Origin: an uncultured Nitrososphaerota archaeon
GTDB lineage: Archaea > Korarchaeota > Korarchaeia > Korarchaeales > Korarchaeaceae
Length of the DNA stretch: 64,000 bases
Assembly: GCA_964594835.1 (NCBI GenBank)
Contig: CAZQNA010000001.1
Coordinates: 160,001-224,000, forward strand
Reading direction: 5' to 3'
Shown: positions 35,259 to 58,424 of the stretch, piece by piece
Layout: each line of letters opens with the position of its first letter
Numbering within the stretch: the stretch's first letter is position 1
Notes under the pieces: model-generated
What the model saw: only the letters and a program-made list of their open reading frames with translations
Databases searched by the model: none
What the model was told of the DNA's origin: nothing
Made by a program: the position numbers and the translations under genes

Positions 35259-36598
35259 TCGGGATGGTCGATCTGCTTGGCCTGGGGGAGGATGCCGTCA
35301 GGAGGGCGACCTCCGCGGGCGCCGAGGAGGCTGAGGCCTTCCTGGTGTCCGGCAGGAGGATCACCGTCGAGGTGGAGAAGGGAGAGGTGAAGACCGCGAG
35401 GTCCGAGGTCGTCTCGGGAGTCGGGGTCAGGTCCGTCGTGGGGGGTAAGGTGGGGTTCGCCTACGCCACCAGCCTGGCCGACGCGCTCGAGGTGGCCGAG
35501 AAGTCGGTCAGGAACGCCGTGGCCAGCAGGCCAGACCCCCACTTCAGGGGTCTCCCGGACCCGGGTCGGCCGACCCGGGTGGAGGGTCTCTTCGACCCAA
35601 GGGTGGCCGAGCTAGACGTCGCTGAGGCCGTGGAGTACACCGGAGAGATGATATCCGCGGCGAGCTCAAAGCGGGGGGTGGTCTCGGTCGGCGGGGCCAT
35701 GAGCGCCTCGGCCCAGGAGGTGGCCGTGGTCAGCAGCCGCGGCGTGGGCGTGTCGGAGAGGAGGACCTCCACGTCCCTCTACGCGTTCGTCGCGGCGAGG
35801 GACGGAGACAGGAGCAGCTCTGGCTTTGAGGTCAACTCCGGCCGGTTCCTGAGGGAGATCAACCCCACCTGGGTGGGGTCTCAGGCCGGAGAGCTGGCGT
35901 CCGCCCTCCTCGACGCCGTCAGGGTCGAGACGGGCACCTACCCGATGGTGCTGGACCCCCTCACCATGGGGCCCTTCATCGGCTTCGTCGTCTCGTCGGC
36001 CGCGAACGGCGAGAACGTGGTCTACGGCAGGAGCTTTCTCACGGGGAAGCTCGGCCAGAGGATAGCCTCCGAGGCCGTGACGCTGCTGGACGACGGGACG
36101 CTCGCCGGGGGAGAGGCCAGCGCCAGCTTCGACGGCGAGGGGGTCCCCACAAGGAGGACGCCGGTGGTTGAGGGGGGAGTCCTGACCAACTACATCCACA
36201 ACTCTTACACGGCCGGGAGGATGGGGGCAGAGTCCACCGGAAACGCGACAAGGTCATTCGACTCGCTCCCCGGCGTGGGATCGCACAACGTCGTCCTCGA
36301 GGCCCCGAAACTTGAGGTCTCGGAGGAGGACCTGTTGGACGTGAGGAGGGGGATACTGCTGAAGCTGACCGAGGACAGGCCCAACCTGGCCAACGGGGAA
36401 TTCAGCGGTATGGTGTACATGGGGTTCCTGATCGAGGACGGCGAGGTTAAGACTGGAGTCAAGGAGGCCAGCTTTGGGATACGCCTCGTGGACCTGATGA
36501 AGGGGATAGAGGCCGTGGGCAGGGAGAAGAGGTCCGTGATGGGCGTGATCTCTCCGCTGGTGAGGGTGGCGTCGGTGAGGGTCGCTGGGCCCTCCTGA
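35255..36598 (+). CDS. pmbA: TldE/PmbA
   Basis: FDGEG and STGNA motifs, no HExxH, coupled to tldD. Confidence 0.9.
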   Translation: MIGMVDLLGLGEDAVRRATSAGAEEAEAFLVSGRRITVEVEKGEVKTARSEVVSGVGVRSVVGGKVGFAYATSLADALEVAEKSVRNAVASRPDPHFRGLPDPGRPTRVEGLFDPRVAELDVAEAVEYTGEMISAASSKRGVVSVGGAMSASAQEVAVVSSRGVGVSERRTSTSLYAFVAARDGDRSSSGFEVNSGRFLREINPTWVGSQAGELASALLDAVRVETGTYPMVLDPLTMGPFIGFVVSSAANGENVVYGRSFLTGKLGQRIASEAVTLLDDGTLAGGEASASFDGEGVPTRRTPVVEGGVLTNYIHNSYTAGRMGAESTGNATRSFDSLPGVGSHNVVLEAPKLEVSEEDLLDVRRGILLKLTEDRPNLANGEFSGMVYMGFLIEDGEVKTGVKEASFGIRLVDLMKGIEAVGREKRSVMGVISPLVRVASVRVAGPS

Positions 36599-55598: not shown

Positions 55599-56513
55599 TC
55601 AGGCGAGTCTCAGCAGCTTGGCGATCATCGTCTTGAGGGCTCCCAAGAGGATCACCCTCGTTACCGCGCCGCCTGGGGCCTCCCAAACCTCGGAGCTGGC
55701 CTCCTCGCTGAACTCCACGTTCACCCCCTTGAAGAGCACCGCCGGGATCCCCTCGTCGGCCTGCCCCATGATGAGGGCAGCCGCTGCCGCCAGCTCGTCG
55801 GCGACGGAGTCGTCCCCGCCGAACTTCGGCCTCCCGAAGTAATCCCTGGCCCCGAAGCGCCTGCGCACCGGGAACACGTTTGCCACGCCCACCGCGACGT
55901 CGATGGAGCCTATCTTCATGGGCTGGAACTCCGTGTCGGAGAGGATCACCCCGACCCTGGCCCCCGTGAGCTCCCGAATTCGGTCGGCTATCTCCCTCGC
56001 CTCCGCGTCTGGATCCGGCGGCAGGAGGCAGACGTGCCCCTCCGGGCAGTTGGAGTAGTCCATGCCCGCGTCGAGGAGGGTGAGCCCCCTGACCCGCATC
56101 AGCATCACGTCCCCAGCGGATTCCACCATTCGCCTCGCCTCCTCCGGGTCCTCCGAGAACCTCTCCGGGAACCCGGTCCCCCGGGTGGCCCTGGAGAATG
56201 GCATTATGAAGACGAGGCTCCCGCCCCTCCTTATGACTTCGGCCTCCCAGGGCTCTCTGCTTGAGAGTTTGGCCAGCAACCTGCTCCTGAACCCAGCGTC
56301 AACGCTCTCCGGCTTGGCGACGTATCCCTTGGCCCTCGATACCACCTTGCTGGCCACCACAACGACGTCTCCGTCCTCGATCCTCTCCCCAACATCCTCG
56401 GCGGCCCTCACGATGAGTTCTCCGAGGTCATCTCCCTTCCCAACCGTCGGGAGCCTGAGACCTATCATCCGGACGATCGGAGGGGCGGCGGGTCGAGGCG
56501 AGTCGTCGTTCAT
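55599..56513 (-). CDS. cofE: CofE-like (F420-0:gamma-glutamyl ligase family) protein
   Basis: GDDLGELI, ASKVVS, AGMDYSN, LPPDPD, ILSDT, DELAAAAALIMGQ.DEG.P motifs. Confidence 0.8.
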   Translation of the reverse strand: MNDDSPRPAAPPIVRMIGLRLPTVGKGDDLGELIVRAAEDVGERIEDGDVVVVASKVVSRAKGYVAKPESVDAGFRSRLLAKLSSREPWEAEVIRRGGSLVFIMPFSRATRGTGFPERFSEDPEEARRMVESAGDVMLMRVRGLTLLDAGMDYSNCPEGHVCLLPPDPDAEAREIADRIRELTGARVGVILSDTEFQPMKIGSIDVAVGVANVFPVRRRFGARDYFGRPKFGGDDSVADELAAAAALIMGQADEGIPAVLFKGVNVEFSEEASSEVWEAPGGAVTRVILLGALKTMIAKLLRLA

Positions 56514-58257: not shown

Positions 58258-58424
58258 TGGTGGGGCCGGTGGGAGTTCCGCCGGGCCCATGTCTTGGCCC
58301 GGATTCGAACCCACGACCTACGGGTCTCCCCCTCAGTGCTCCACTGACTGGAGCCCGCCGCCCTGCCTTTCTAGGGCGGCCTCGCCCCTATCATCGGGAG
58401 GCCACCTGGCTAGGCCACGGCCCC
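58258..58424 (-). tRNA. trnW: tRNA-Trp(CCA) with three introns (17/17a, 37/38, 59/60) and encoded CCA end
   Basis: Removing 58407-58369 (39 nt), 58347-58326 (22 nt) and 58303-58275 (29 nt) yields a 77-nt cloverleaf GGGGCCGUGGCCUAGCCAGGCAGGGCGGCGGGCUCCAGACCCGUAGGUCGUGGGUUCGAAUCCCACCGGCCCCACCA. Each junction folds as a bulge-helix-bulge. Confidence 0.9.

Follow-up and report, generated by a model that had tools for sequence, protein, structure and literature searches.

A tRNA-Trp gene with three introns in a korarchaeal genome, and candidate guide motifs in two of them

How does a stretch of DNA that tRNA finders pass over come to yield a complete tRNA-Trp, and do the introns that interrupt it carry anything beyond the signals for their own removal? 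We address these questions for a locus in a 64,000-nt window (the whole stretch of DNA analysed here) from the genome of an uncultured archaeon of the Korarchaeaceae. Archaeal tRNAs have been reported to contain up to three introns, and Caldiarchaeum subterraneum has 13 intron-containing tRNAs, of which 3 are multi-intron (PMC4090602, PMC3293823, PMC3082918). Three-intron tRNAs are already known, and the gene by itself is one more example.

The gene, its detection and its splicing enzymes

The tRNA-Trp(CCA) gene occupies positions 58424-58258 of the minus strand, 167 nt including the encoded CCA. Direct reading places a TATA box (TTATATA, 58457-58451, minus) 27 nt upstream of tRNA position 1 and a T6 run, a likely terminator, 11 nt past the CCA (58246-58241, minus). 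The TTATATA core is also present in same-genus loci L002-L005 (...CAACCGTTATATA...), and genus g3 loci have TTTATATAA at the equivalent position. An initial annotation, made from the letters alone, described a tRNA-Trp split by three introns of the bulge-helix-bulge (BHB) type at 17/17a, 37/38 and 59/60, and every helix, bulge and stem that it named is present, as are the TATA box and T6 run. Intron 1 (39 nt, 58407-58369, minus, D-loop site 17/17a) has a CUAG/CUAG central helix, CCA and AAA bulges and a 9-bp intron-side stem (GGUGGCCUC/GAGGCCGCC); despite these, its exon-side helix is just 1 bp, read by eye, and its cut may sit up to 3 nt further 3′ with the product unchanged. Intron 2 (22 nt, 58347-58326, minus, canonical site 37/38) combines a CUCC/GGGG helix and AGU and AGA bulges with the 5-bp anticodon stem outside and a weak stem inside. 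Intron 3 (29 nt, 58303-58275, minus, T-loop site 59/60) has the T-stem, a UUCG/CGGA helix, AAU and ACU bulges and a 7-bp intron-side stem, CCGGGCC/GGCCCGG. It is the only strict hBHBh′ motif of the three, introns 1 and 2 being relaxed BHB.

The archaeal BHB rule prescribes a cut after the second base of the 3-nt bulge (PMC4090602). Applying it to each bulge and joining the four exons by script (58424-58408, 58368-58348, 58325-58304 and 58274-58258, minus) removes 39 + 22 + 29 nt and leaves a 77-nt product that ARAGORN calls as tRNA-Trp(cca) with a standard cloverleaf. The cloverleaf is complete, with acceptor, D, anticodon and T stems of 7, 4, 5 and 5 bp, and has U8, A14, GG, TTCRA and the encoded CCA. 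The T-loop junction is supported because the 3′ 32 nt of the spliced product are identical to an uninterrupted tRNA-Pro(UGG) of the same genome (G000:C13:3832-3863, BLAST); in that gene (G000:C13:3787-3863) the shared 32 nt comprise the T-arm, acceptor strand and CCA. Intron coordinates were confirmed when the introns were compared by BLAST with the genome. The minimum fold of the precursor (-94.6 kcal/mol, z -3.4) shows an hBHBh′ motif at intron 3, a relaxed motif at intron 2 and a long hairpin at intron 1. DNA contigs from 4 runs of 2 samples carry all three introns, and an intron-less form is absent from them. We have hardly any doubt that this is a genuine gene interrupted by three introns. 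Past its 3′ end, at a distance of ~1.7 kb, follows an open reading frame with a full F420-0:gamma-glutamyl ligase domain (E 1e-53; 55599-56513, minus).

The initial annotation held that standard finders may miss such a gene, and they do. Unspliced, it receives no ARAGORN tRNA call in the window, no Rfam match at gathering thresholds and no tRNA match around the locus up to E 10. Across the host genome (G000; 1.82 Mb, 24 contigs, 64.9% G+C, 97.4% complete), ARAGORN with introns enabled makes 61 calls, none of them Trp, and Infernal gives 45 tRNA matches, none at 58424-58258. The Rfam tRNA model finds the two-intron orthologues L002 (45.5 bits) and L010 (29.1 bits) and not the window's gene: the third intron pushes the tRNA below detection by this model and by ARAGORN, and tRNA-Trp may therefore be wrongly reported missing in genomes of the group.

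As a chance control, we took BHB-like segments of 10-120 nt from both strands of the whole genome, removed them singly, doubly or triply, and ran ARAGORN on each construct (318,672 single, 584,940 double and 1,042,820 triple). Eleven constructs had a CCA anticodon, five at the tRNA-Trp locus and six at five other loci, and among these only the annotated triple removal has U8, A14, GG and TTCRA together. The other five loci lack several invariant features, and 4/5 lie in stretches mostly or fully covered by an open frame. No second Trp-type anticodon arm was found in the genome by BLAST of the spliced sequence or by an exon-2 pattern search. Across ARAGORN with introns, Infernal, BLAST, the exon-2 pattern and in-silico splicing, this tRNA-Trp(CCA) is the only credible one found in the 97.4%-complete genome.

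Other tRNAs of this genome were touched on by the same searches. tRNA-Tyr(GUA) was not found by ARAGORN with introns or by Infernal, and CAU tRNAs number just two; for these reasons more hidden multi-intron tRNA genes are probable here. The removal of segment pairs gives a candidate Tyr(gta) construct near C1:129040-129172. False tRNAs abound in the output of the splicing screen (54 double, 74 triple clusters), and it was used for the Trp question alone. In the window, ARAGORN with introns also calls tRNA-Arg(cct), interrupted at position 30 by 43 nt of intron (36265-36399, minus; G000:C1:196265-196399); this call receives no support from Infernal or the BHB screen and is probably false.

Three introns of this kind were thought to need a splicing endonuclease of broad specificity, and the genome encodes a candidate. 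Outside the window, at G000:C4:14018-15106 (L182:1462-2553, minus), lies a 363-aa EndA in which two endonuclease units are fused in one frame. Its C-terminal unit matches the catalytic alpha subunit of Aeropyrum pernix (E 6e-39), residues 74-346 match the two-unit Archaeoglobus enzyme (1R0V, 2GJW), and the N-terminal half shows weak matches to structural subunits. K220 and R222 line up with two residues of the Crenarchaea-specific loop, K44 and R46; this loop is reported to confer cleavage of D-loop and relaxed motifs in A. pernix and also when grafted into the Archaeoglobus enzyme (PMC3241643). The match to the alpha subunit and the loop residues support broad specificity at the level of sequence. 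The catalytic unit and K44/R46 loop are thus like those of the A. pernix enzyme, whereas here structural-type and catalytic units form one chain, and the protein amounts to a naturally occurring equivalent of the engineered AFU-CSL chimera (PDB 3P1Z, 3P1Y), as that construct is described in PMC3241643. The fused form is full-length in 41/43 genomes of the group; the C. subterraneum enzyme has been described as heterotetrameric (PMC3082918), and given this the fused form may merit description. The genome also encodes RtcB, as well as fibrillarin, Nop5 and L7Ae.

Age and distribution of the three introns

To place the introns in time we compared 43 species-level genomes, all in the phylum and 40 of them in the class, with 36 in the window's family including the window's own genome. 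Introns 1 and 2 are both present in 29/29 parsed family loci. The intron-2 signature occurs in 33/36 family genomes (the three without it are 91%, 70% and 71% complete) and in 0/7 genomes outside the family. In-silico splicing gives introns of 36 + 22 nt in genus g3 and 35 + 47 nt in genus g2, a single canonical intron of 57 nt in family f2, and an 18-nt D-loop intron plus a 13-nt T-loop intron in family f3, where the anticodon intron is absent. Intron 3 has a different distribution. Its 22-nt core is found in 1/43 genomes with up to 3 mismatches allowed, and the T-loop is intact in 3/4 other genomes of the genus and in three metagenome loci of that type covering the T-loop. BLAST within the genome found no paralogue or donor for the introns. 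Judged from these sequences, introns 1 and 2 are old, inherited from the family ancestor, and intron 3 was gained recently in this species. Since two introns are common to the family and one is specific to the species, the initial picture of three introns side by side was incomplete. It had also placed triple-intron tRNAs mainly in Thermoproteales; the lineage here is a small group of 43 genomes outside Thermoproteales.

Sequence change within the family follows the structure of the introns. Across 32 distinct relatives, pairing in intron 1 is 100% for the central helix and 83% for the intron stem, and 5 pairs carry changes in both partners; in intron 2 it is 95% for the central helix and just 67.5% of cells for the inner stem. 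Exons are nearly invariant over five genera, and introns change in a compensatory way. Further loci came from a scan of genome contigs with a 16-base pattern, which returned at least 120 stretches, dominated by GC-rich bacteria; useful among the matches listed were L075, identical in sequence to L030, and L088, from Methanothrix. In genus g4 (G007) tRNA-Trp was not found, four pattern matches there lying in coding-like sequence. Locus L188, whose anticodon by eye is UUU, was set aside as a different, intron-containing tRNA.

The sister species G002 (L005) has an unrelated 46-nt intron at 59/60, so that its tRNA-Trp is also a triple-intron gene. Site 59/60 of tRNA-Trp thereby holds three unrelated introns in three lineages, of 29 nt in the window, 46 nt in G002 and 13 nt in family f3 (L151/L152), and each carries its own complement to the local T-loop sequence. 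On these sequences it has the look of a place where introns are gained repeatedly, a hot spot, and with unrelated introns in two sister species and a distant family it is a good case for the study of that process.

Multi-intron tRNAs of other archaea, known from the SPLITS studies of Sugahara and colleagues in Thermoproteales and C. subterraneum, are alike in their BHB introns, in their use of canonical and D- and T-arm sites and in a broad-specificity endonuclease. The present case differs in its lineage, a different and small one, and in having two introns that are family-wide and have motifs beyond BHB. In the passages cited above, the three tRNAs named for C. subterraneum as multi-intron do not include tRNA-Trp. 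A eukaryotic nuclear tRNA gene with three introns is interrupted in the same three arms, but involves another enzyme set, and the abstract on it proposes no guide (PMC9602550).

A candidate C34 guide in introns 1 and 2

Intron 2 reads U-CAG-UGGAGC-A-CUGA-GGGGG-AG. The element UGGAGC (58343-58338, minus), of which GGAGC is invariant in 32/32 sequences, is the complement of GCUCCA at tRNA positions 31-36 (58354-58349, minus; C34 at 58351). It is followed after one base by a box D, CUGA (58336-58333, minus), and the fifth base upstream of this box pairs with C34. The GA of the box is invariant in 32/32 and its first two bases vary (CUGA, AUGA, UUGA, UCGA, UAGA). Over the 32 sequences, 99% of cells in the target-antisense pairs are paired, the hairpin loop that separates target from antisense varies, RNAalifold picks the hairpin unprompted, and the predicted pair probability is high in most sequences. 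The long tRNA-Trp intron of Methanothrix (L088) has an identical UGGAGCA-CUGA string, placed after a C′ box. C34 (Cm34) and Um39 are the reported targets of the tRNA-Trp intron guide (PMC4090602, PMC7994747, PMC7714728), and Cm34 in tRNA-Trp has been reported in Haloferax, Thermococcus and Sulfolobus (PMC7668247).

The initial annotation judged a 22-nt intron too short to hold a box C/D guide. Intron 2 does lack a box C, only 5 bases preceding the antisense element, but it is far from empty: it keeps the UGGAGCA-CUGA antisense and box D with C34 at N+5. From these resemblances we infer that intron 2 descends, in miniaturised form, from the methylation guide of archaeal tRNA-Trp introns, and its antisense element is probably functional. 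Compared with the euryarchaeal pre-tRNA-Trp guide (the 103-nt intron of Haloferax volcanii, Pyrococcus sR50), it is alike in the order of antisense, one base and box D, with C34 at N+5. The known guide holds C, D′, C′ and D in one intron of ~65-105 nt and has two targets, whereas here 22 nt hold box D and one antisense. By eye in the aligned relatives, neither intron 1 nor intron 2 contains a conserved GA-GA for a second C′/D′ pair, or, by eye, an antisense to positions 38-46 as a second guide for position 39. The 57-nt intron of family f2 (L153/L154) has AUGAAGA and, beyond 11 nt that take in the antisense element, CGGA or UGGA. This intron may represent a guide in a degenerate or an intermediate state; a convincing K-turn could not be fitted to it.

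A possible box C lies in the other old intron. The apical loop of intron 1 contains AUGAU (58394-58390, minus), conserved in the family as RUGAU: its U-G-A never varies, an A or a G always comes before it, U follows in 31/32, and the surrounding stem varies. Upstream of it, CUCCC (58400-58396, minus) can pair with the GGGGG that follows box D in intron 2 (58332-58328, minus), the two being the proposed 5′ and 3′ strands of a K-turn C-stem, with a 3-nt bulge (G-A-U) between CUCCC and the GA of box C. The resulting arrangement of stem, 3-nt bulge, tandem G-A pairs and U-U pair is that of a box C/D K-turn, and the 3-nt spacing from stem to GA holds in 21/21 distinct combinations. Whereas the euryarchaeal guide keeps its box C in the same intron, the box C-like motif here would sit in a second intron ~55 nt upstream, across an exon.

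The proposed inter-intron stem is 5-8 bp long, and in alignment A1 its five box-proximal pairs are standard in every lettered cell. Both sides change at 4/8 pairs (CG26/UA6, CG20/UG11/UA1, UA19/GC2 and CG10/GC7), and 89% of cells are paired, compared with 46-58% when the partner is slid by 1-3 columns. The covariation score was reached by 0/500 shuffles, and contiguous pairing averages 6.3 within a lineage, a level matched in 0/10,000 permutations, and 4.6 across lineages. Both counts ignore kinship; because the sequences are related, the covariation amounts to ~3-4 independent events and the shuffle counts overstate the support. Of the positions that covary, two fall within the 3′ BHB bulge and are free of splicing constraint, and in genus g2 the G-rich flank is apart from the BHB helix and still matches intron 1. 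In the window's genus the stem is just 5 bp with one G-U, box C is just RUGAU (5/7 consensus bases, the last two not conserved), and all comparative support comes from one family.

On this covariation and geometry we tentatively propose, at chances that we put a little under even, that a C34 guide is split between the two introns, with box C and one stem strand in intron 1 and antisense, box D and the other strand in intron 2. A full-text literature search returned no description of a box C/D motif divided between two tRNA introns. Two arrangements confined to intron 1 were rejected: a K-turn within it, which has no conserved GA on the 3′ strand, and a second guide to G26, whose 7 bp of complementarity occur in the window's genus only and decay elsewhere.

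Competing folds, rival explanations and implications

Any such guide would have to coexist with splicing in one RNA. Four of the GGGGG bases also pair with CUCC (positions 32-35) as the BHB central helix, and intron 1 forms its own hairpin (-21.5 kcal/mol at 37 °C), which hides RUGAU in its loop. The inter-intron stem would draw on bases of the intron-1 hairpin and also of the BHB helix in intron 2, which makes guide and splicing folds mutually exclusive. At 37 °C the constrained guide fold lies ~9 kcal/mol above the minimum. At 75 °C, a temperature assumed from the G+C-rich genome and the vent-metagenome labels of matching DNA, the unconstrained minimum of the full precursor contains the inter-intron helix and the guide hairpin. 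For 32 shortened precursors, prediction strongly favours the guide hairpin, and the BHB helix of intron 2 has a probability near zero in nearly all; the predicted ground state is for that reason not the cleavable fold. At 75 °C the inter-intron stem is given a probability of 0.13-0.94 in genus g3 and a low one elsewhere, including the window's genus, g2 and g5. Since the guide fold excludes both BHB motifs, methylation would have to precede splicing, and an ordered pathway of methylation followed by refolding and splicing fits these fold predictions. In Methanopyrus, modifications have been reported to precede intron removal (PMC3695527).

The explanation that we consider very probably right overall is a single functional tRNA-Trp(CCA) gene with three protein-spliced introns, of which introns 1 and 2 carry what we infer to be parts of a guide. 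Its own TATA promoter would drive a precursor of ~170 nt with all three introns. UGGAGC of intron 2 would pair with anticodon-loop positions 31-36, so that C34 faces the fifth base upstream of box D. Intron 1 would supply RUGAU and the second strand of the terminal stem, which is why one K-turn would be possible; it would form only while both introns remain in the RNA, or between the two once they are excised. Either the precursor or the excised pair of introns would thus offer a single K-turn to L7Ae, Nop5 and fibrillarin, leading to Cm34. After Cm34 formation the RNA would refold into a splicing-competent form, the fused EndA with its crenarchaeal-type loop would cut the three BHB sites, and RtcB would join the exons.

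That the locus is a decaying pseudogene, while a tRNA-Trp missing from the assembly reads UGG, is very improbable. The assembly of 24 contigs at 97.4% completeness does leave a small part unseen, but the cloverleaf is perfect with all the invariant bases checked, promoter and terminator are kept, the exons hardly vary over five genera whereas changes in the introns are compensatory, and the same locus is the sole Trp candidate found in relatives. The 4 runs from 2 samples, all with three introns and none with an intron-less form, also argue against decay. A stronger contender, which we find somewhat doubtful and yet worth real weight, keeps the same gene and introns and dispenses with the guide: motifs and complementarity would serve the folding of the precursor (anticodon masking, cleavage order) or reflect weakly constrained inheritance. 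The G-run must pair with CUCC for the BHB motif anyway, box C is incomplete with no C′/D′ found, the covariation comes from one family of related sequences, and the inter-intron stem is predicted at low probability in the window's genus, g2 and g5. A strict regular expression, too strict to interpret, found 0 canonical C/D sRNAs in the genome, which leaves no model for the organism's own boxes. Folding or inheritance, however, sits poorly with a U-G-A and a box D GA invariant in 32/32 while intron loops and stems otherwise vary freely, or with an antisense and box D string equal to that of a long guide intron in the distant Methanothrix. The base at N+5 is exactly C34, the reported target (PMC4090602, PMC7994747), and the G-rich flank of genus g2 matches intron 1 despite lying apart from the BHB helix.

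Intron 2 could instead be a working half-guide whose box D finds its partner elsewhere, in a separate box C RNA, in a second precursor molecule or in L7Ae bound to a looser motif, so that the match to intron 1 would be incidental. We regard this as unlikely. The stable hairpin of intron 1, with RUGAU hidden in its loop, speaks for it, but no other partner was found, and at the sole guide-like element elsewhere in the genome the box context is poor. The constant 3-nt spacing in 21/21 combinations and a complementarity higher within lineages than across them point to intron 1 as the partner.

If the split guide shared by introns 1 and 2 is true, it would be the first case found of a functional RNA-protein binding site built from two separate introns, and it would provide a simple natural system in which the order of modification and splicing is set by mutually exclusive folds. 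It would also explain why these two introns have been retained jointly through the whole family.
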